Sequence record: SRR31156797_6782 | Length of the DNA stretch: 33,778 nt | Reading direction: 5' to 3' (one strand) | Shown here: piece after piece, positions 651-27,221 of the stretch | Layout of the letters: each line of letters opens with the position of its first letter | Position numbering within the stretch: the stretch's first letter is position 1 | Program-made: the position numbers and the translations under genes | The notes under the pieces: model-generated | Told to the model about the DNA's origin: nothing | Databases searched by the model: none | What the model saw: only the letters and a program-made list of their open reading frames with translations

Positions 651-1751
651 ATGATGAAGCAAATATTATTTGTGCTCTTTCTTTTTCTAAAAATAATTAA
701 TGCGATTGGACAAGAACGATACTATTTCGAAACACCCTCAAAAGCAAAAACTCAATATGAAATTGATCTTAATAATTCAAAAATTCATCATACAGATACT
801 GTGAATTTTAAGATTGAGTCACTTACTCTTTTAAAACCCCAAAAGTCATGGCATAATAAAAGCTTACATTTACAAACAATAGACAACGATACTATTTATG
901 CAAGCGATAACACAGGAGTTAATCTATATCTCTTTGACATGAACGGAAATCCTATTCGTAAAATTGATTTAAGTAAATTTGATAAACATTTTAAAATAAC
1001 GAATAGTGAGATTTATAATGATACTCTTTATTTAGCGGATAAAGAGTCTCTGTTTTTATTCAAATTAACGAGAAGTGGTGATTTAATTACAAAAACTACT
1101 TTGCCTTTTAAATTTGAGGATTTCCAAATCAACAATCAAGGCATATATTTCATTAGTAAGCATTTGGATGAAAAGCGAGAAAAAAGGATACTAATTAGCT
1201 TATACGACTTTTCATTAGATCTACAGAAACTTTATTTTGTTACAGATAAACAAAATATGACAGAATTAAGACCAAAATTCTTTAAAGGTGAGTGTGATGA
1301 AAATTTATTTTCAATAACAGAGTGCAATCAAATATATAAACTGGAAAAAAATAAGGTGTCCTTATATTTACAAGTTAATGGAGGAAATTATATAAATTCT
1401 TATGCAAATGGAATTGGATTTCATATGTTAGAAGAAGCGTTTTCTGTAAAGGGAGAATCTTATTATGATCTCAATAAATATTATTATCCAAAAGAAAAGT
1501 TGAAAGACGGTATAGAATTTCAATCATATGGTCCAAACGACCTTACAATTTTATTAAACGGTTCTAAAGCTTATCAGCGTACTTACGTAAATATCACAAA
1601 AATGAGTAATGTTCAAATACCAAATATACTTAAAATGAAATGGGCTGAGGATCATAAATATATTAAAGACGAATTACTAGAGCTTATTAAGCAGGTTGAT
1701 GAGAATAATAAATTTGTTTTGGTGAGTTATAAAGTGATTGAGAATCCTTGA
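651..1751 (+). CDS. Exported hypothetical protein, likely 6-bladed beta-propeller
   Basis: N-terminal signal peptide; repeated blade-like motifs (DTIYASD..LYLFDMNG, DTLYLAD..LFKLTRSG, GIYFISK..ISLYDFS). Confidence 0.65.
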   Translation: MMKQILFVLFLFLKIINAIGQERYYFETPSKAKTQYEIDLNNSKIHHTDTVNFKIESLTLLKPQKSWHNKSLHLQTIDNDTIYASDNTGVNLYLFDMNGNPIRKIDLSKFDKHFKITNSEIYNDTLYLADKESLFLFKLTRSGDLITKTTLPFKFEDFQINNQGIYFISKHLDEKREKRILISLYDFSLDLQKLYFVTDKQNMTELRPKFFKGECDENLFSITECNQIYKLEKNKVSLYLQVNGGNYINSYANGIGFHMLEEAFSVKGESYYDLNKYYYPKEKLKDGIEFQSYGPNDLTILLNGSKAYQRTYVNITKMSNVQIPNILKMKWAEDHKYIKDELLELIKQVDENNKFVLVSYKVIENP

Positions 1752-1945: not shown

Positions 1946-2202
1946 CAAAATATGAACATTAATGTGATTGCTATTCAATAATTGGACATACATTGGCATT
2001 GTGTCCTAAAACAAAGGAAAATTGAACGCTCAAAGAATGCAGCCTAATAAAGCAGTAAAGTATAAAGTCCGACATGCTGCTAGAGTAAATTCGATCTCTT
2101 TACGTGACACACTTAGAAGAACCCTCTAGCATAACCATTATTTATACCTCCATATTAGATATACAGTTATCTGAACATCCTCTATTTTCCAGGGGGGGGA
2201 GT

Positions 2203-2731
2203 AGGTATATTTTCTCTGGTAAAAGGTAATTTGTAGCTTATTTTAGGTATACACTCATCGTCTTTAGGTATTTACTTGCGGGTAAAAGGTTTTTTTCCTG
2301 TGTAAATAGGTGTTTCTCTTCTACAAGCAGGCCTAATTTTTCTTCATTTAGGTGTTTTTACCCAATAAACAGGTGTTTTTTTTGATGCATTTAGCCTTTT
2401 TCCTAGAAATTTTAGGTGTTTCTTTGCTCCTTTTAGCTTTTTAATTCCCATTTTTAGGTATTTTGCTAGCAAACGACAGGCCTTTTTTAAGGGTATTTAG
2501 GTGTTTTCTCTGCCCTATTAGGCATAAATTTACTGGCTTTAGGTGTTTTTTTACATATCAATAGCTTTTTTGTTACTTGATTAAGGTATTTTCTCACCCA
2601 TTTTAGCTTTTTGATTTCCCTTTAAAGGTGTTTTTCTGTTAACTAAATGGCCTTTAATTTGTGCAGACAGCCATTTTCCTTCACTCAATAGGGTTTGTTC
2701 CTCTACATATAGGTGTTTTTCCAATGGCACA
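2203..2731. repeat. Phased non-coding array of 25 degenerate 21/22-bp units (consensus about tttAGGTgtttt + ~9-10 variable nt)
   Basis: Cores (AGGT/AGGC/AGCT/AGCC and variants) start at 2203, 2224, 2245, 2266, 2287, 2308, 2329, 2350, 2371, 2393, 2414, 2435, 2456, 2478, 2499, 2520, 2541, 2563, 2584, 2605, 2626, 2648, 2669, 2690 and 2711. That is twenty 21-bp steps and four 22-bp steps. Stop codons occur in all six frames. Confidence 0.92.
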
Positions 2732-4396: not shown

Positions 4397-5473
4397 TTAT
4401 AGTACATCAATACATTGAAGGTCTTCAAAAGCCACTTTAAGTCTAGCCACTAATGTTTCCTGACCTTTACGTAACCAAACACGTGGATCGTAGTACTTTT
4501 TATTTGGTTTATCATCGCCATCAGGGTTACCAATTTGTCCTTGTAAGTAAGGTCTGTTTTCAGCTTCAAACTTACGAATACCATCCCAGGTAGCCCATTG
4601 CGTATCGGTATCAATATTCATTTTGATCACACCATAGCTAATTGCTTCGCGAATTTCTTCTAAAGTAGAACCTGATCCTCCGTGGAAAACAAAGTTCACA
4701 GGATTTTTACCTAAACCATGTTTCTCTTCGATATACTTTTGCGAGTTATCAAGGATTTTTGGAGTCAACACTACGTTTCCTGGCTTATAAACCCCGTGTA
4801 CATTACCAAATGAAGCAGCAATAGTAAAGTTTGGCCCAACAGAACTCAATACTTCGTATGCCTGATTCACTTCTTCCGGTTGTGTATATAATAATGCATT
4901 GTCCACATCTGAATTATCCACACCATCTTCTTCTCCACCAGTAATTCCAAGCTCAATTTCGATAGTCATGCCAATTTTGTTCATTCTTTCGAAATACTTC
5001 TTACAAATTTCCAGGTTTTCTTCAAGTGGTTCTTCTGATAAATCCAACATGTGAGAGCTAAACAAAGGCTTACCTGTTTCTGCAAAATGCTTTTCACCAG
5101 CATCCAGCAATCCATCAATCCAAGGTAATAATTTTTTAGCAGCATGGTCGGTATGCAGAATAACAGGTACACCGTAAGCTTCTGCCATCATATGCACATG
5201 TTTTGCAGCTGAAACAGCACCTAAAATCTGACCTTGTTGTCCTTCTAAACCAACACCTTTTCCGGCATAGAACGCAGCACCACCGTTTGATAACTGAATG
5301 ATAACCGGAGAGTTTACCACTTTTGCAGCTTCTAATACTCCATTAATAGAGTCTGTACCAACAACATTTACTGCTGGCATTGCGAAACCATTGTCTTTTG
5401 CAACCTGGAATAATTTTGTTACATCATCACCAGTTACAACACCGGGTTTTACAACGTCTAATACTTTTCCCAT
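4397..5473 (-). CDS. fbaA: Class II fructose-bisphosphate aldolase, type A (E. coli FbaA-like)
   Basis: HTDH, SSHMLDLSEE, GGEEDGVDN, FGNVHGVYKPGNV, FHGGSG, KMNIDTD and KKYYDPR motifs. Confidence 0.97.
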   Translation of the reverse strand: MGKVLDVVKPGVVTGDDVTKLFQVAKDNGFAMPAVNVVGTDSINGVLEAAKVVNSPVIIQLSNGGAAFYAGKGVGLEGQQGQILGAVSAAKHVHMMAEAYGVPVILHTDHAAKKLLPWIDGLLDAGEKHFAETGKPLFSSHMLDLSEEPLEENLEICKKYFERMNKIGMTIEIELGITGGEEDGVDNSDVDNALLYTQPEEVNQAYEVLSSVGPNFTIAASFGNVHGVYKPGNVVLTPKILDNSQKYIEEKHGLGKNPVNFVFHGGSGSTLEEIREAISYGVIKMNIDTDTQWATWDGIRKFEAENRPYLQGQIGNPDGDDKPNKKYYDPRVWLRKGQETLVARLKVAFEDLQCIDVL

Positions 5474-5803: not shown

Positions 5804-6799
5804 ATGGCAGTTAATTACAAAGAATTAGGGCTTTCGAGCACTCCTGAATTGTTTAAAAAAGCTGTAGCTGGTGGATACGCTATCCCAGCTTACAATTTCA
5901 ACAACCTTGAGCAAATGCAAGCGATTATCCAGGCTTGTGTTGAAACAAAATCTCCAGTTATTCTTCAAGTATCTGCAGGAGCAAGAAAATATGCTAATGC
6001 AACTTTGTTAAGAAACATGGCGAAAGGTGCAGTAGAATATGCTAAAGAACTTGGTTATGAAATTCCAGTAGTTCTTCACCTTGACCACGGTGATACTTTC
6101 GAACTTTGTAAAGATTGTATCGACAACGGTTTCTCTTCTGTAATGATCGATGGTTCTCACCACTCATACGAAGAAAACGTTGCTTTAACAACAAAAGTAG
6201 TAGAGTACGCTCACGCTCATGGTGTTGCTGTAGAAGGAGAACTTGGTGTATTAGCTGGTGTTGAGGATGATGTAGTAGCAGAAGAGTCTACTTACACAAG
6301 ACCAGAAGAGGTAGAAGATTTTGTTAAAAGAACAGGTGTTGATTCTTTAGCTATTTCTATCGGTACTTCTCACGGTGCTCATAAATTTACTCCTGAGCAG
6401 TGTACTAAAAATGCTGATGGTATTTTAGTTCCACCACCATTGAAATTCGATATCTTAGAAGAAATCGAGAAAAGAATACCTGGTTTCCCAATCGTACTTC
6501 ACGGATCTTCTTCTGTACCTCAAGATCACGTTGCTACAATTAACGAGTTTGGTGGAGAAATTAAAGCTGCTATTGGTATTCCAGAAGACGAATTACGTAA
6601 AGCTGCTAAATCAGCTGTATGTAAAATTAACATCGATTCAGATGGTCGTTTAGCTATGACTGCTGCTGTTAGAAAAGTAATGGCTGAAAATCCAGGTGAA
6701 TTCGATCCTAGAAAATATTTAGGTCCTGCTCGTGATATTTTGAAGGATCTTTACATGAAGAAAAACATCAACGTATTAGGTTCTGCTAACCAAGCTTAA
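5804..6799 (+). CDS. fba: Class II fructose-1,6-bisphosphate aldolase, type B (Bacteroides-type Fba)
   Basis: HLDHG, SVMIDGS, EGELG, GTSHG, LHGSS, KINIDSD and FDPRKYLGP motifs; strongly biased codon usage typical of a highly expressed gene. Confidence 0.95.
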   Translation: MAVNYKELGLSSTPELFKKAVAGGYAIPAYNFNNLEQMQAIIQACVETKSPVILQVSAGARKYANATLLRNMAKGAVEYAKELGYEIPVVLHLDHGDTFELCKDCIDNGFSSVMIDGSHHSYEENVALTTKVVEYAHAHGVAVEGELGVLAGVEDDVVAEESTYTRPEEVEDFVKRTGVDSLAISIGTSHGAHKFTPEQCTKNADGILVPPPLKFDILEEIEKRIPGFPIVLHGSSSVPQDHVATINEFGGEIKAAIGIPEDELRKAAKSAVCKINIDSDGRLAMTAAVRKVMAENPGEFDPRKYLGPARDILKDLYMKKNINVLGSANQA

Positions 6800-6963: not shown

Positions 6964-9279
6964 TTAGAAAGGATACCCAATAGCAAAGTTAAATGCGGTA
7001 TCACTCCAGGTAAAAGGTCTTGAACCAGGTATCCATCTTTTTCCGGAATCTTGAACCGGATCTCTTAGTTTGAGACCTGTATCAATCCTAAACATAAAGT
7101 ATTTCAAATCAAACCTTAATCCCAATCCTGTTCCTACAGCAATTTTATCTGTAAAATCTTTAAATGAAAACAATCCTCCCTCAGGACTAATATCCTTTCG
7201 GATCGTAAAAATATTACCTGCATCCAAAAATAATGCACCCTCAAGCATCCAAAACAGCTTAAAACGATATTCGGCATTGGCTTCCAACTTAATATCACCG
7301 GTTTGATTGTAGTAATCAGCTTCCGGATCATTATAAGACCCCGGACCAAGTCCTCTTACAGGCCAGGCTCTGATGCTATTGGCTCCTCCGGAGAAATATC
7401 GTTTCTCAAAAGGTAGTACATCCAGGTTTCCGTAAGGATAACCAACACCTAAATACAGGCGATAAGCAAAACTGTTTATCTTATTTAAATAATGATGATA
7501 CCTGATATCAATATCTCCCTGAACATATTGCGCATATCGAATTCCCAACACCTCATAATAACTATCTTCTTTTTTTTCTGCCGATGTTTGGGATAGCAGA
7601 TTTAAAATATTACCCGCTTCTTCCACATTCATATGAATATACCAGAAGTTTTTTCGTCGATTAACTTCCTGCTCGTTATATACAATGGAATATGAAGTTC
7701 GGGTTACGAGGTGATCCTCGTATGAATAACGCAAGTAGGTGTCTTCTATTTGTCCCCAAAAATCACTATCTACCGTCGGTATTCCAACATAGTTAACGCC
7801 TAATGGAGTAAGCACATGAGAGAAATATTTTCCTGAGTTCCACAAATAACTCACCTCACTATTGGCTATTGTACGCGTATAATCGGGTCTGCGCTGAAAA
7901 TTATACGCAACGGAAACTGATGTTTTGGGTACATATCGTTGCCTGAACTTTTCAATTTTAATCGGCATCCAGAATTTTGGAAAGGTAATACCAGTCTCTC
8001 CTCCAATTTCCAGTGTACTAAATTGCTCTTTTTGCCTGTTCATTTGATTCTGCATAGAAACACCAAAACCAAATTTATATTCCTCTGCCCCTTTAAATAA
8101 GTTTTTATGCTGATACTCCAGATTTCCTCCGGCACCAAGGTTACCCGATGAGTTTAAACCTTCAATATCGATTGAATACGATTGATACTTGGAAGGAACT
8201 AACTGAATATAGCAATTGAGATATTTATAATCCGAATCTTCCTCTTCTAATTCTTCAAAGCGGATATTCACAAAGCGATATAAACGCAATCCAGAAAGCA
8301 ATGCCTGCGTTCGATCTATTTTGTTGGCTCTATATAAATCTCCCGGTTTTATCAAGCTTGAACTTATTAAAACTTCTGGGTTTACTTCAACCTGGTCGAT
8401 GTATAGAAAAAAATTATCATCAATTTCCAAGGTATCAAACTGTTCAAAATAGTTTTCTTTTTCGTTTAAAGCTCTATGGGTATTAAAACCCATCCTGTAA
8501 AACACATCTTTAATTTTATAGACCGGATGTTGGAATACCGTATCCTTATCTCTGGCTATTTCTTTACGGGCATTTTTTATAATTACAGAATCAAGCACCT
8601 CGTATTGGCTACCAGTGGTATCTACCTTATAATAAATAAATTCTTTCGAAAATGCGTAATATCCATTATTGCGCAATAACTTGGTAATGCGCTCTCTTTC
8701 TTTGTCATGAACCGATACATCAAAAGCCTTTCCTTTTTTTAATAAGCTACGGCTTAAGTTCTCTTGAATTATTGAATCAACAACCGGATCTTCTGCTTTA
8801 TAATAAACACCGCTTAACTTAAACTGCTCGCCAGGTTGTATTTTATACTTTAGCTTTGCTTTTTTCTTTTTAGTTTTTAACTGAACATCACTTTCAACCT
8901 GGGCATGAAAGTATCCTTTATTTTGCATGAATGTTTTAAGCTGCCCCTCTGTTTGCTCAGTTAAAAATTCATCGTAAACAACAGGTTCTTCGCCAATACG
9001 CTGCAGCCATTTATTAATGCCTTTAGTCGTATCTTTACCTGCCAAATTATACAACCACAAATGAAATTTGAACAAGCCAATAATTTGAACATTGGCATTT
9101 TGCTTGATATATGGCTTAAATCTCTCTTTTGAAATATCCCTTGCCTTATTTTTAACCACAACTTTATTCAACAAGTACTTATCCTCGGGAATATGTTTTG
9201 TTGAACTACATGCAGTAAGAAATGCAACACAGGCAATAACTAAATATTTAAAATACTTATTCAAATATATCGATTTCAA
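6964..9279 (-). CDS. tamL: Omp85/BamA-TamA family outer-membrane lipoprotein (TamL)
   Basis: Lipobox LTAC; IGEEPV, GYFHA and GYYAF POTRA motifs; GGANSIRAW; C-terminal FNFAIGYPF. The exact start codon is uncertain. Confidence 0.9.
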   Translation of the reverse strand: MKSIYLNKYFKYLVIACVAFLTACSSTKHIPEDKYLLNKVVVKNKARDISKERFKPYIKQNANVQIIGLFKFHLWLYNLAGKDTTKGINKWLQRIGEEPVVYDEFLTEQTEGQLKTFMQNKGYFHAQVESDVQLKTKKKKAKLKYKIQPGEQFKLSGVYYKAEDPVVDSIIQENLSRSLLKKGKAFDVSVHDKERERITKLLRNNGYYAFSKEFIYYKVDTTGSQYEVLDSVIIKNARKEIARDKDTVFQHPVYKIKDVFYRMGFNTHRALNEKENYFEQFDTLEIDDNFFLYIDQVEVNPEVLISSSLIKPGDLYRANKIDRTQALLSGLRLYRFVNIRFEELEEEDSDYKYLNCYIQLVPSKYQSYSIDIEGLNSSGNLGAGGNLEYQHKNLFKGAEEYKFGFGVSMQNQMNRQKEQFSTLEIGGETGITFPKFWMPIKIEKFRQRYVPKTSVSVAYNFQRRPDYTRTIANSEVSYLWNSGKYFSHVLTPLGVNYVGIPTVDSDFWGQIEDTYLRYSYEDHLVTRTSYSIVYNEQEVNRRKNFWYIHMNVEEAGNILNLLSQTSAEKKEDSYYEVLGIRYAQYVQGDIDIRYHHYLNKINSFAYRLYLGVGYPYGNLDVLPFEKRYFSGGANSIRAWPVRGLGPGSYNDPEADYYNQTGDIKLEANAEYRFKLFWMLEGALFLDAGNIFTIRKDISPEGGLFSFKDFTDKIAVGTGLGLRFDLKYFMFRIDTGLKLRDPVQDSGKRWIPGSRPFTWSDTAFNFAIGYPF

Positions 9280-9412
9280 AGATTTATAAATTACAGTCTG
9301 AACTCTATTGTATCATTTCGTTGAACACAATCTTTGGTTCAAAAATACTAATGCAATGGATTAATTTTCCTTCCTTTCTCTTAATCCAAATTAATATCTA
9401 TCAAAATTTAGG

Positions 9413-9449
9413 CAAAAGTATTTAAATACATCGTAATAAAGTAAATTTG
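9413..9449. promoter_or_regulatory. Overlapping divergent -7 promoter elements for tamL (-) and trmH (+)
   Basis: CAAAAGTA at 9413-9420 (TACTTTTG on the minus strand) and TAAATTTG at 9442-9449. Confidence 0.55.
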
Positions 9450-26293: not shown

Positions 26294-26536
26294 TTAAGCA
26301 GCTGCTGCTTGTTTCTTAGCAACAAAAGCTGCTATACGTTCAACACTACCAAAATTTTCCTCCTGAAGCTCGCTGTCATCTGTCACTACATTATACTCAC
26401 TTTCCAAAAAGTTGATTAAGCCTAAAAGACCCATCGAATCAAAAATGCCCTCATCAAAAATCAGGGTTTCATCTTGAATAGTTGAAGGCTCAACAAACGC
26501 AGTTTCTGCAATAAAATTTCTAATTTGATCTTTCAT
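26294..26536 (-). CDS. Acyl/aminoacyl carrier protein
   Basis: 80 aa, acidic; GIFDSM phosphopantetheine site; ENFGSVERI, resembling DltC-like carriers. Confidence 0.92.
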   Translation of the reverse strand: MKDQIRNFIAETAFVEPSTIQDETLIFDEGIFDSMGLLGLINFLESEYNVVTDDSELQEENFGSVERIAAFVAKKQAAAA

Positions 26537-27221
26537 GTTTTATAAATTTGCTTTTCATGATTTAAAACTACTTTTAGTAAGTCTATTACAATTCTTATTT
26601 GCATAATACTCTTAAAAATAGTTCTTAAACACAATTAGGTTTATTGATTAAATTAATTTGAATGAAAGATATGTTTTTTAGTTGTTCCACTAATCAATAG
26701 TTTGCCGAACGGTTTGAATTTATAGATTAACGAACAAAATGAACGGTGGAGTACAATGTATAACCCTATGCTAAATAAAGACATATAAAATACTTAAATA
26801 GAATTTTAAAATTTATGTTACCATTATTCTATTACACTTTTATTATTTTCTACCACATTATTTATTAATAAATTGAATAAAGCAACATTTCTTCAATTTG
26901 CTTTAAAACAACAAATACAAGCTTTTTATAAAAACATTCCTTAAATTGGGTAAATATCAAGTGAATTTTATTTTTATTTCCAGACAATAATAAAGTGAGC
27001 TCGCATAGACCACCTGTTGACGAACAAATAATATTTAGTGACTAGCTGTCAATTTTTATTAATTAAAATCACAAATAGGAAACATTAATTGAAAATATAC
27101 GTTCAAAACAGAGAACTAACACAACATTTAATACACACACGCTGACAGCCTTATTTTTTTAAGGTATTCCTAGAACAACAGCCAGGTAACATTAAACTAA
27201 AAATCTAAAAATTATTTAATT

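Follow-up and report, generated by a model that had tools for sequence, protein, structure and literature searches.

Plasmid iterons (R6K, RK2, P1, F and pPS10) are direct repeats bound by Rep proteins that follow one another at a pitch of ~22 bp in uninterrupted arrays. Each iteron has 17–22 conserved nucleotides, and the 3–9 copies of an array lie beside a rep gene and an AT-rich unwinding element. The array analyzed here is part of a 33,778-nt stretch of DNA, referred to below as the window, and resembles iterons in that its 25 directly repeated units, at a pitch of 21.20 bp, place successive sites on the same side of the helix. It differs from them in its number of units, in a conservation limited to 9 nt and in its chromosomal housekeeping setting without a rep gene. 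It also differs from partition centromeres of the parC, parS and sopC type, as no parA/parB or parM/parR genes are adjacent to it in the window. CRISPR loci have repeats of at least 23 nt and spacers of at least 26 nt, whereas the array has a core of 9 nt and a spacer of ~12 nt, and Pfam and PADLOC detected no cas gene in the window.

The binding sites of LytTR-type regulators (AgrA, ComE, PlnC and YpdB) are ~9-bp direct repeats with a 12–13-bp spacer, present in two to three copies per promoter. The array fits this geometry, a 9-bp core and a 12–13-bp spacer adding up to its 21–22-bp pitch, but it comprises 25 repeats between convergent genes and has no linked regulator. The REP/BIME elements of enterobacteria are ~35-nt palindromes in alternating orientation, into which IS1397 and ISKpn1 insert specifically. 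Like them, the arrays described below are non-coding extragenic clusters that appear to be dispersed and, in two congeners, to be preferred by one insertion sequence (IS), which abuts arrays at 11 of 21 junctions in one congeneric genome (G078) and 7 of 21 in another (G090). Unlike them, the array consists of direct, non-palindromic 21-mers without a fold signal, the IS is an IS256-family element located at the edges of arrays, and the copy number is low, with two loci of this core in the nearest genome (G001).

Mrazek et al. (2007) reportedly described long simple-sequence repeats of prokaryotes. Such repeats and minisatellites share with the array the intergenic, head-to-tail arrangement of constant-length units, the fast turnover and the change in unit number, here relative to G001. 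Their units are short and near-perfect, whereas those of the array are degenerate outside the core (~50% identity) yet exact in pitch. Curved DNA with phased A-tracts, as in kinetoplast-type bends, is similar in that the array carries A/T tracts of at least 4 nt in ~10.5-bp phase, but here the tracts are spaced two turns apart and belong to a specific AGGT-type word. Mrazek and co-workers have also surveyed sequence periodicity (PMC3431218, PMC3372288). The array of the window is a discrete 530-bp repeat element, in contrast to a diffuse genomic periodicity. A full-text literature search returned, within the text it could access, no account of arrays of this kind and none of repeats being targeted by IS256-family elements.

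Anatomy and setting of the array

The units start at positions 2203, 2224 and so on up to 2711, with a residual standard deviation of 0.4 bp around the regression pitch. All steps are 21 bp except for four 22-bp steps, which follow units 9, 13, 17 and 21 (Table 1). On the plus strand the core reads (T/A)3-AG(G/C)(T/C)-N-TTTT, and on the minus strand AAAA-N-(A/G)(C/G)CT. Within a unit, the 9-nt core AG(G/C)(T/C)-N-TTTT is followed by a ~12-nt spacer that differs unit by unit. Core position 1 is A in 24 of the 25 units and position 2 is G in all 25; position 3 is G or C (20 G, 5 C), position 4 mostly T or C (18 T, 6 C) and position 5 free, while T occupies positions 6, 7 and 8 in 24, 21 and 21 units. 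Five core positions are thus conserved at 84–100%, and only 5–8 of the 21 positions of a unit are informative. The remaining positions mostly carry 0.03–0.3 bits, with a bias to T, C or A/T at some flanking ones (0.57–0.88 bits). The strict pattern AG[GC][TC]NTTT is matched by 18 of 25 units, the degenerate ones being units 1–3, 7, 16, 22 and 24. Cores of the AGGT(G/A)TTTT type and of the AGC/AGGCC type tend to alternate, and a MAFFT alignment placed both types in a 42/43-bp register. The plus strand of the region is 45% T, and G is its rarest base.

Table 1. Features of the array and its surroundings in the window.
Feature	Position	Strand	Evidence or remark
Degenerate direct-repeat array, 25 units of 21/22 bp	2203..2731	.	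Unit starts, per-position counts, pitch, shuffles
Sub-block of units 9–21, steps 22-21-21-21, 85-bp superperiod	2371..2647	.	Step list, autocorrelation
GH28 glycoside hydrolase gene, 454 aa	2775..4139	-	PF00295, E 4.5e-27
ORF, 366 aa, no family	651..1751	+	Without Pfam, NCBIfam or PADLOC match
G-run junction ccagggggggg	2191..2199	.	Two further array units there in G001
Short spacer, last unit to GH28 stop codon	2732..2774	.	143-bp insertion in G001 at ~2750
Possible IS256-family terminal inverted repeat remnant	2154..2182	-	Gapped local alignment, left end of the G078 IS

The periodicity is far outside chance expectation. Identity at lag 21 was 0.468, compared with a maximum of 0.392 over lags 2–130 in 5,000 shuffles, none of which reached it. 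Cores at 21/22-bp steps form a chain of 21, compared with at most three in 5,000 shuffles and at most two elsewhere in the window. The highest autocorrelation was at lag 85 (0.479), and unit identity at offsets 4, 8 and 9 was barely raised (0.52–0.54, with 0.526 at offset 4, compared with ~0.49–0.51), so that the case for a recent 85-bp higher-order repeat is weak. Tandem Repeats Finder reported nothing in the region because the units are only ~50% identical to each other at every offset. Each of the six frames contains 9–14 stops. The corresponding array of G001 has 6–25 stops per frame, yet also one stop-free stretch of 106 codons, and most related arrays have no open frame. The array is non-coding. 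Both this and the description of 25 cores with unique spacers at 21/22-bp pitch, which a sequence-only reading of the window had given, are confirmed by these analyses.

T-runs of 4–8 nt recur in the array every second helical turn. The 22 T-tracts are in helical phase, with a coherence of 0.69–0.79 at 10.5–10.6 bp per turn, namely 0.69 at 10.5 and 0.79 at 10.55, compared with a 99.9th percentile of 0.55 under random placement. A second calculation, at 10.5 bp per turn, gave 0.72 with a random 95th percentile of 0.36. In a second array of G001 the coherence was 0.93, compared with a random 95th percentile of 0.56. These values support the proposal, made in the same reading, that cores and T-tracts share one face of the helix. 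Curvature as a property common to all IS-flanked arrays was ruled out, since A/T tracts are almost absent from 4 of the 18 arrays examined.

Pfam was run on 22 ORFs of the window, and NCBIfam and PADLOC on the 366-aa neighbor. The 33.8-kb window holds ordinary chromosomal genes, among which no rep, parA/B, relaxase or integrase gene was found, and Pfam, NCBIfam and PADLOC showed no transposase gene beside the array. The GH28 gene converges on the array, whose A-rich strand is co-oriented with it. The 366-aa ORF lies in a variable region to the left that is absent from G001, and the array itself stands at a synteny break: homology between the window and G001 starts at ~2166–2202 and runs rightwards, with none leftwards.

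About where this homology begins, a short segment resembles the terminal inverted repeat of an IS256-family element. Its tip points to the array and lies ~20 nt from unit 1. Aligned with the left terminal repeat of the G078 IS in reverse complement, it scored 11, compared with 8.3 ± 1.25 for shuffled sequences. This putative remnant at the left edge is only suggestive, because 53 of 1,000 shuffles reach its score; for a similar match in G001 the number was 107 of 1,000. The earlier statement that no cas, rep, par or transposase gene adjoins the array therefore stands for genes, with the qualification that this weak IS256-like match is present.

The possibility that the array is transcribed was examined by several searches. 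From the GH28 stop to the array, no terminator-like site was found on the minus strand, in agreement with what had been noted from the letters alone. An Rfam search of the array with E up to 10 returned noise only and no family, and the array folded no better than shuffled sequence (z-scores −0.22 and +0.44). The Bacteroidota promoter consensus is TTTG-N17-23-TAnnTTTG, and no match to this pattern was found near the array.

Comparison with the nearest genome and with congeners

We used G001, the nearest genome, for comparison with the window array. Its array 1 corresponds to the window array at 93% identity, with 38 substitutions and one 1-base indel in 534 bp. For comparison with this divergence of 7.1% (38/534), four flanking genes differ at 10.4% of their 4-fold sites (76/728) and three intergenic spacers by 2–13%. 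Array 1 evolves only slightly slower than 4-fold sites, and its short-term change is close to neutral. The five best-conserved core positions account for 5 of the 38 differences in 125 of the 534 sites (4.0%, versus 8.1% elsewhere), a difference that is not significant (z ~1.5). The single indel against 38 substitutions agrees with the earlier suggestion that spacing is kept while sequence diverges. Of the four 22-bp steps, which had likewise been noticed, all are present in the window, but the one at unit 9 reflects only a difference in T-run length and is 21 bp in G001.

As had been proposed, we compared orthologous loci for changes in unit number and scanned with the core for further arrays and their neighbors. 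G001 array 1 holds two more units at its left end and is otherwise collinear with the window array. Next to it are a gene for the ParD antitoxin and a truncated one for ParE, which make up a toxin-antitoxin pair and not a partition system. Both pattern and profile searches found exactly two loci of the same core in G001. The second, array 2, has ~14 sites and lies behind the housekeeping operon prs-rplY-pth. Between G001 and the source run of the window, no indel was found among the differences listed for array 2, whereas four 1-base indels fall within 21 bp just outside it. At the window array and at both G001 arrays, the A-rich strand follows a co-oriented gene.

More distant congeners have no array at either G001 locus and carry 21-bp arrays with other cores elsewhere. 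No array was present at the orthologous GH28 locus of G076 or at the DUF4924 locus in 22 of 23 congeners; in G079, a weak periodic signal 3′ of the DUF4924 gene (L133) was inspected and dismissed as an array. Because arrays are missing from these orthologous loci, no locus-bound function is conserved. The arrays are always intergenic, and convergent, divergent and tandem gene contexts all occur, with some arrays lying between divergent gene starts or upstream of genes. No common family emerged among the array neighbors, comprising 31 proteins flanking 12 further arrays together with those beside G001 array 2, and no rep or par partner gene was found beside 14 further arrays.

Among the congeners, arrays range from near-perfect higher-order repeats through all stages to decayed ones. 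One array of G078 (C43) is a clear 85-bp higher-order repeat of four 21/22-bp units, and in G090 one array occurs at two loci with 98.5% identity over 407 bp. When we searched for ACCTA triples with unit-specific spacers, multi-unit arrays were found only at a pitch of 20–22 bp, while matches at 15–19 and 23–27 bp were nearly all 8-bp simple repeats or lone matches. Simple repeats of 7 and 8 bp built on ACCTA are abundant in the genus. An order-wide scan for AGGTNTTT at 42–43-bp pitch matched 10 of 401 genomes and its reversed control 11; this core is therefore not enriched across the order. BLAST searches of the array against 72,556 plasmid and 50,697 phage records gave no match. The window array is best read as a member of a loose class of 21-bp-pitch extragenic arrays dispersed in the genus, and the earlier suggestion that similar 21–22-bp tracts exist in other Bacteroidota is borne out by these marine relatives.

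IS256-family elements beside the arrays

We judged arrays at IS flanks by eye, aided by a periodicity score. In G078, 21/42-bp arrays of at least four core types abut 7 of 11 right-end and 4 of 10 left-end junctions of an IS256-family element. In the complete genome of G090, arrays were found at 7 of 21 IS flanks, 4 of them clear. No IS copy with both flanks seen has arrays on both sides in either genome. As a control, an unrelated IS256-family element of G001 reached a periodicity score of at least 0.46 at 1 of 24 flanks. The abutment of an IS256-family element on arrays in two congeners, at one flank only in the copies that could be checked, is a new observation. The preference is seen in G078 and G090, whereas the window array has only the terminal-repeat-like match described above.

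All junctions seen share IS ends of 100% identity. The two copies of the duplicated G090 array have an IS 3 nt away in one case and 37 nt in the other. At one G078 junction (C98) the IS end itself forms a 72-bp tandem duplication, and at another (C221) an intact IS end is separated from a solo inverted terminal repeat by three array units. No intact copy of the G078/G090-type IS was found in G001, where a single pattern match with two mismatches was recovered. The idea that the units copy the IS terminal repeat was rejected: similarity between the two gave z-scores of −2.4 to +2.2 over 19 regions and was not significant for the window. Since the units are unlike the terminal repeats, IS targeting is not simple sequence mimicry.

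Possible origins and roles of the array

Our preferred explanation, held tentatively and at somewhat less than even confidence, is a dispersed, fast-turnover extragenic array that would work through its DNA, as a curved platform docking a protein on one face. The phased T-tracts would impose a strong planar intrinsic bend, and the AGGT-N-TTTT cores on one face may line up as weak sites for a DNA-binding protein whose gene lies elsewhere; this protein would touch successive sites two turns apart. The curved or coated stretch could then be a structural landmark between convergent genes, with edges that an IS256-family transposase might recognize. What argues for such a platform is that five positions remain at 84–100% while most others are barely informative, even though the region is poorer in G than in any other base; a tandem repeat decaying neutrally and uniformly would not look like this. 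Also counted in its favor were the restriction of multi-unit ACCTA arrays to a pitch of 20–22 bp, the periodicity and helical phasing, the scarcity of indels in the two arrays compared with G001, the second locus of the core in G001 and the IS junctions at arrays in G078 and G090. Against it we counted that arrays with different cores would need different sequence-specific proteins, together with the near-neutral divergence, the non-significant protection of the core, the absence at orthologous loci, the two-unit difference from G001 and the four arrays almost free of A/T tracts. We consider it rather unlikely that, beyond this, a sequence-specific protein polymerizes along one face of the curved DNA and the transposase reads the nucleoprotein edge, which would make the 21-bp arrays an undescribed type of chromatin landmark in bacteria. 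Structure- or protein-guided target choice of this kind is not known for the IS256 family.

The main rival, which we regard as somewhat doubtful, is a functionless or selfish satellite: a 21/42/85-bp minisatellite produced by unequal recombination or slippage, spread or duplicated, and now decaying. On this account IS copies accumulate beside arrays because insertions there are harmless. The sporadic, lineage-specific distribution is consistent with a satellite, as are the near-neutral divergence from G001 without significant core protection, the gain or loss of two units, the range from near-perfect to decayed arrays among congeners, the duplicated G090 array and the abundance of ACCTA simple repeats in the genus. 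Uniform decay, however, would neither spare the five core positions nor hold a 21.2-bp pitch without indels. Harmless intergenic DNA is also far more extensive than the arrays, yet arrays adjoin the IS at 11 of 21 junctions in G078, compared with 1 of 24 for the other IS in G001, and G090 copies with both flanks seen never have an array on both. Alternatively, the arrays may be by-products of the IS, made at its termini or carried with them, and the window array may have been left behind after IS loss. Their position directly at IS tips, the one-sidedness, the two unusual G078 junctions and the weak match abutting the window array are compatible with this origin, which we nevertheless consider improbable: the IS ends are identical whereas the arrays are old and fall into at least four core types unrelated to each other, the units are not similar to the terminal repeats, and the distances of 3 and 37 nt in G090 fit separate insertions. 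Moreover, G001 has two arrays but no intact IS copy, and the remnant score in the window is one that shuffled sequences also reach.

Three further readings were weighed. Read-through from GH28, or a promoter of its own, could yield an A-rich RNA with 25 ACACCU-type motifs that serves as a sponge for an RNA-binding protein or a small RNA, or as a small-RNA precursor. This fits the lack of a terminator-like site on the minus strand, the A-rich strand behind a co-oriented gene at three loci and a strand asymmetry suited to a single-stranded, unstructured sponge. The Rfam, folding and promoter searches lent nothing to this RNA alternative, whose small-RNA form the sequence-only reading had offered; some arrays elsewhere are found upstream of genes or where two genes start divergently, and the strict two-turn spacing and the IS targeting point to DNA, and we consider it improbable. 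The same reading had likened the array to a centromere or iterons, and the array could be what remains of an integrated plasmid or conjugative element after gene loss, namely its origin or partition site. The pitch of 21–22 bp is the classical iteron spacing, the array is located at a synteny break, and the ParD and truncated ParE genes beside the G001 array form a module common on mobile DNA. This origin is nonetheless very improbable: rep and par partners, like relaxase and integrase genes, are missing from the 33.8 kb and from beside the 14 other arrays, plasmid and phage records gave no match, conservation is limited to the 9-nt core and does not extend over a whole iteron, and the second array follows a housekeeping operon. 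Finally, decay of a gene for a heptad-repeat protein, suggested by the equality of 21 bp and seven codons and by the 106-codon stretch in G001, is effectively refuted by the stops in every frame of both arrays, by the frame shifts at 22-bp steps and by the closure of most related arrays. At the orthologous loci, congeners have no array and therefore no intact gene.

If the cores dock a protein, the array would be an unusually large chromosomal multi-site platform, with 25 sites plus ~14 at the second locus and no cis-encoded partner, and would point to a previously unknown nucleoid-organizing or titrating system in marine Bacteroidota. If it is instead an inert satellite, it would be a well-documented case of exact helical pitch outlasting sequence decay. 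It would then also be a caution for annotation, having escaped both Tandem Repeats Finder and Rfam. The one-sided link of the IS256-family element with arrays that are unlike in sequence and equal in pitch suggests that the target is chosen by DNA geometry or by a bound protein; such a choice at array edges, if true, would explain the synteny break at the edge of the window array. TTTGAAC, which had appeared as a shared motif at array edges, was recognized as the terminal repeat of the IS in G078.

Architecture and geometry of the array

The array consisted of 25 units in 21-bp steps, except for four 22-bp steps following units 9, 13, 17, and 21, and regression gave a pitch of 21.20 bp with a residual sd of 0.4 bp. 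Within the core, A was present in 24/25 units and G in all 25, followed by G or C (20 and 5 units), T or C (18 and 6), one free position, and T in 24, 21, and 21 units. Non-core positions mostly carried 0.03-0.3 bits, with a few next to the core biased to T, C, or A/T (0.57-0.88 bits). Identity between units was ~50% at every offset, which explains why Tandem Repeats Finder, run on the window, reported nothing at this site. Lag-21 identity was 0.468, whereas the highest value among 5000 shuffles was 0.392. The longest chain at 21/22-bp steps contained 21 cores; chains did not exceed 3 cores in the shuffles or 2 in the rest of the window. The two core types, AGGT(G/A)TTTT and AGC/AGGCC, tended to alternate; MAFFT found a 42/43-bp register unprompted for three-unit stretches, and autocorrelation peaked at lag 85 (0.479). 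The array is a real feature: its direct repeats are non-coding, keep a pitch of exactly two turns, and combine a short conserved core with randomised spacers.

T made up 45% of the plus strand, and the 22 T-tracts of at least 4 nt were helically phased, with a coherence of 0.69 at 10.5 and 0.79 at 10.55 bp per turn (random 99.9th percentile, 0.55). Thus, the 25 cores at a mean pitch of ~21.2 bp described in the sequence-only reading were confirmed by unit list, regression, and shuffling, and its phased T-tracts exceeded random expectation. A T-tract bends DNA by roughly 18 degrees; at this value, the 22 phased tracts would give a predicted net planar bend approaching a full circle. A/T-tract phasing was strong in most arrays examined, and 4/18 were nearly tract-free.

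Coordinates of the array, its surroundings, and related loci
Feature	Sequence or locus	Position	Remark
Array	window	2203-2731	AG dinucleotides start 2203, 2224, ... 2711
Array, left part	window	2199-2336	20 differences from G001
Array, middle	window	2337-2472	1/136 positions differ from G001
Array, right part	window	2473-2731	17 differences from G001
IS terminal-repeat-like stretch	window	2154-2182	29 nt, tip towards array
Terminator-like site	window	2181-2205	weak, plus strand
Class-II fructose-bisphosphate aldolase paralogues	window	4397-5473; 5804-6799	divergent, side by side
22-bp tandem duplication	window	26522-26575	~2 copies
G001 insertion	L002	2106-2248	143 bp, ~2750 in window
ParD antitoxin gene	L016 (G001)	9149-9440	PF03693, E 3.5e-29
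Duplicated array	L305, L307 (G090:C1)	~1.775 Mb; 2.008 Mb	98.5% over 407 bp
Duplicated array, second pair	L310, L311 (G090)		97.9% over 235 bp
IS right end in 72-bp tandem duplication	L105 (G078:C98)	1503-1646	directly adjoins array
Solo inverted IS terminal repeat, three array units, intact IS end	L315 (G078:C221)	~68780-69380	
IS/array loci, G078	L141, L144-L149, L106, L315, L317, L320		
IS/array loci, G090	L303-L311		
ACCTA simple repeats	G086:C1	3684134-3684362	
ACCTA simple repeats	G087:C1	1524959-1531452	
ACCTA simple repeats	G090:C1	4495827-4506364	
ACCTA simple repeats	G073:C1	284461-299516	

Conservation and turnover

The nearest genome, G001, contained the orthologous array (array 1), which differed from that of the window by 38 substitutions and one 1-base indel over 534 bp. 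Spacing, whose conservation in relatives had been proposed as a check, was conserved between the two genomes apart from this single base, located in a T-run, and unit 9 is 21 bp long in G001. Array 1 has two additional units at its left end and is separated from the stop codon of the GH28 gene by a 143-bp insertion; this insertion, absent from the window, contains an inverted repeat and may be a small mobile element. Divergence of the array was 7.1%; four flanking genes diverged by 10.4% at their 728 four-fold sites, and the three intergenic spacers compared diverged by 2-13%. Of the 38 differences, 5 fell on the five most strongly conserved core positions, which account for 125 of the 534 sites (4.0% vs 8.1% elsewhere, not significant). 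With a rate near that of neutral sites and a non-significant core deficit, short-term evolution of the array is at most mildly constrained. The low-divergence middle of the array may be a recombination tract. To the left of array 1 lie a ParD antitoxin gene and, after it, a ParE-like ORF only 12 codons long, ending where homology to the window starts.

Scanning G001 with a sequence pattern and with a profile of the window array, as the sequence-only reading had suggested, detected only two same-core loci. The second (array 2; ~14 units, 21-bp pitch, one 22-bp step) lies behind a prs-rplY-pth-S4-DUF4924 operon and was also present in one contig of the window's source run. Between the source run and G001, array 2 had no internal indel among the differences listed, and four 1-base indels fell within 21 bp just outside it.

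Neither array was conserved in more distant congeners. The closest GH28 orthologue (G076, 78% DNA identity) had another gene directly downstream and no array, and the DUF4924 gene was present in 23/23 genomes of the genus, with an array behind it in G001 only. A genus-wide search for ACCTA triples at pitch 20-22 identified arrays in G073, G077, and G078 whose spacers differ from unit to unit, while triples at pitch 15-19 or 23-27 were almost solely 8-bp simple repeats and single hits. Together with a G076 array of TAACAG-type core and same-style arrays in other families of the order (G349, G227, G141), these bear out the mention of similar tracts in other Bacteroidota in the sequence-only reading. 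The word AGGTNTTT showed no order-wide enrichment over a reversed control. The flanking genes of the arrays had no feature in common, and gene contexts were convergent, divergent, and tandem. In the congener G090, one array occurred twice with the same spacers, and a second pair was also detected; these duplications at separate loci indicate that arrays are dispersed repeats and not merely local expansions. Arrays are gained and lost rapidly across species, and no cis partner gene was found.

Simple repeats of 7 or 8 bp based on ACCTA (ACCTAATA, ACCTATTG, ACCTAAC) were numerous genus-wide, far commoner than the reversed control word, and clustered in 10-15 kb regions; one cluster in G073 lies <1 kb from a 21-bp array. 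Genus g9 (G017, G023, G031; L020, L022, L023) carried well-conserved 22-bp tandem arrays of the AAAACCTAACGTGGTTTTGGGT type at several loci, two of which (L020 and L022) had a common ACTCCCTAT-type word upstream.

Association with an IS256-family element

A word recurring at array edges was traced in G078 to an IS256-family element present in multiple copies, whose terminal inverted repeat it represents; the element encodes a Transposase_mut family protein. When arrays were called by eye, aided by a periodicity score, 7/11 right-end and 4/10 left-end junctions in G078 abutted 21/42-bp arrays, with at least four unrelated core types. In the complete genome G090, which carries the same IS family, 7/21 IS flanks were array-adjacent (4 clearly), and no copy seen on both sides had arrays on both flanks. 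The control, an IS256-family element unrelated to this one and present in 12 copies in G001, showed a periodicity score of at least 0.46 at 1/24 flanks. In congeners, arrays of equal pitch adjoin the ends of a single IS family. The G001 element (L154-L168) has 8-bp target duplications, and its insertion sites are unrelated sequences, not arrays.

Beside the window array, a 29-nt stretch near the start of window-G001 homology aligned to the IS terminal repeat with a score reached by 53/1000 shuffles; this match may be a trace of the IS and serves as a lead only. Composite structures involving IS ends were also observed in G078 (L105 and L315).

Proposed and alternative readings

The array contained 9-14 stops in every frame, which ruled it out as a gene and agreed with the closed frames described earlier; the G001 orthologue, where an intact ORF would have spoken for a decayed gene, was likewise closed (6-25 stops per frame), and that reading is less likely. 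Also less likely is a function as RNA: searches with E as high as 10 gave no Rfam match, folding showed no excess stability over shuffles on either strand (z = -0.22 and +0.44), and no Bacteroidota-type promoter pattern was found near the array. The sole terminator-like site nearby was weak and on the plus strand, in keeping with the claim that none separates the GH28 stop from the array. In geometry the array most resembles iterons, but these have a rep gene and whole-unit conservation, both missing here, and an iteron relic is a less likely origin. Gene-family searches found no rep, par, cas, integrase, or transposase gene in the window, upholding the reported lack of such neighbours, and BLAST of the array against plasmid and phage records gave no match. 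REP/BIME clusters may be comparable in genomic behaviour and as IS targets, although their units are palindromic, and phased A-tract curved DNA is similar in its predicted physics, although its periodicity is diffuse whereas the array is a discrete repeat element. No account of arrays of this kind turned up in full-text literature searches.

The main rival to a protein-binding platform is inert satellite DNA. It accounts for the patchy occurrence of arrays and for a rate close to neutral, yet leaves both the core/spacer contrast and the IS association unexplained. That arrays are by-products of the IS is less likely; no similarity of array units to IS terminal repeats was found, and in the duplicated G090 array of 98.5% identity the IS lies 3 nt away at one copy and 37 nt at the other, indicating that arrays predate the insertions. 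The array belongs among phased, degenerate minisatellites or extragenic repeat arrays; its function is putative, and the IS256-family association and the exact pitch add to its interest. The pattern of core conservation suggests selection on both cores and spacing. The simplest agent would be a putative DNA-binding protein making contacts on curved DNA at intervals of two turns, and the transposase may recognise the array edge through its geometry or through such a bound protein.

Gene content of the window was ordinary chromosomal, including isochorismatase, GH28, two class-II aldolases, an Omp85-family protein, and purine and polysaccharide genes. The best named relatives of the GH28 gene were records titled uncultured Saccharicrinis sp. 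The two aldolases are paralogues, and the short tandem duplication lies in the polysaccharide locus, within a divergent intergenic region of 1 kb.
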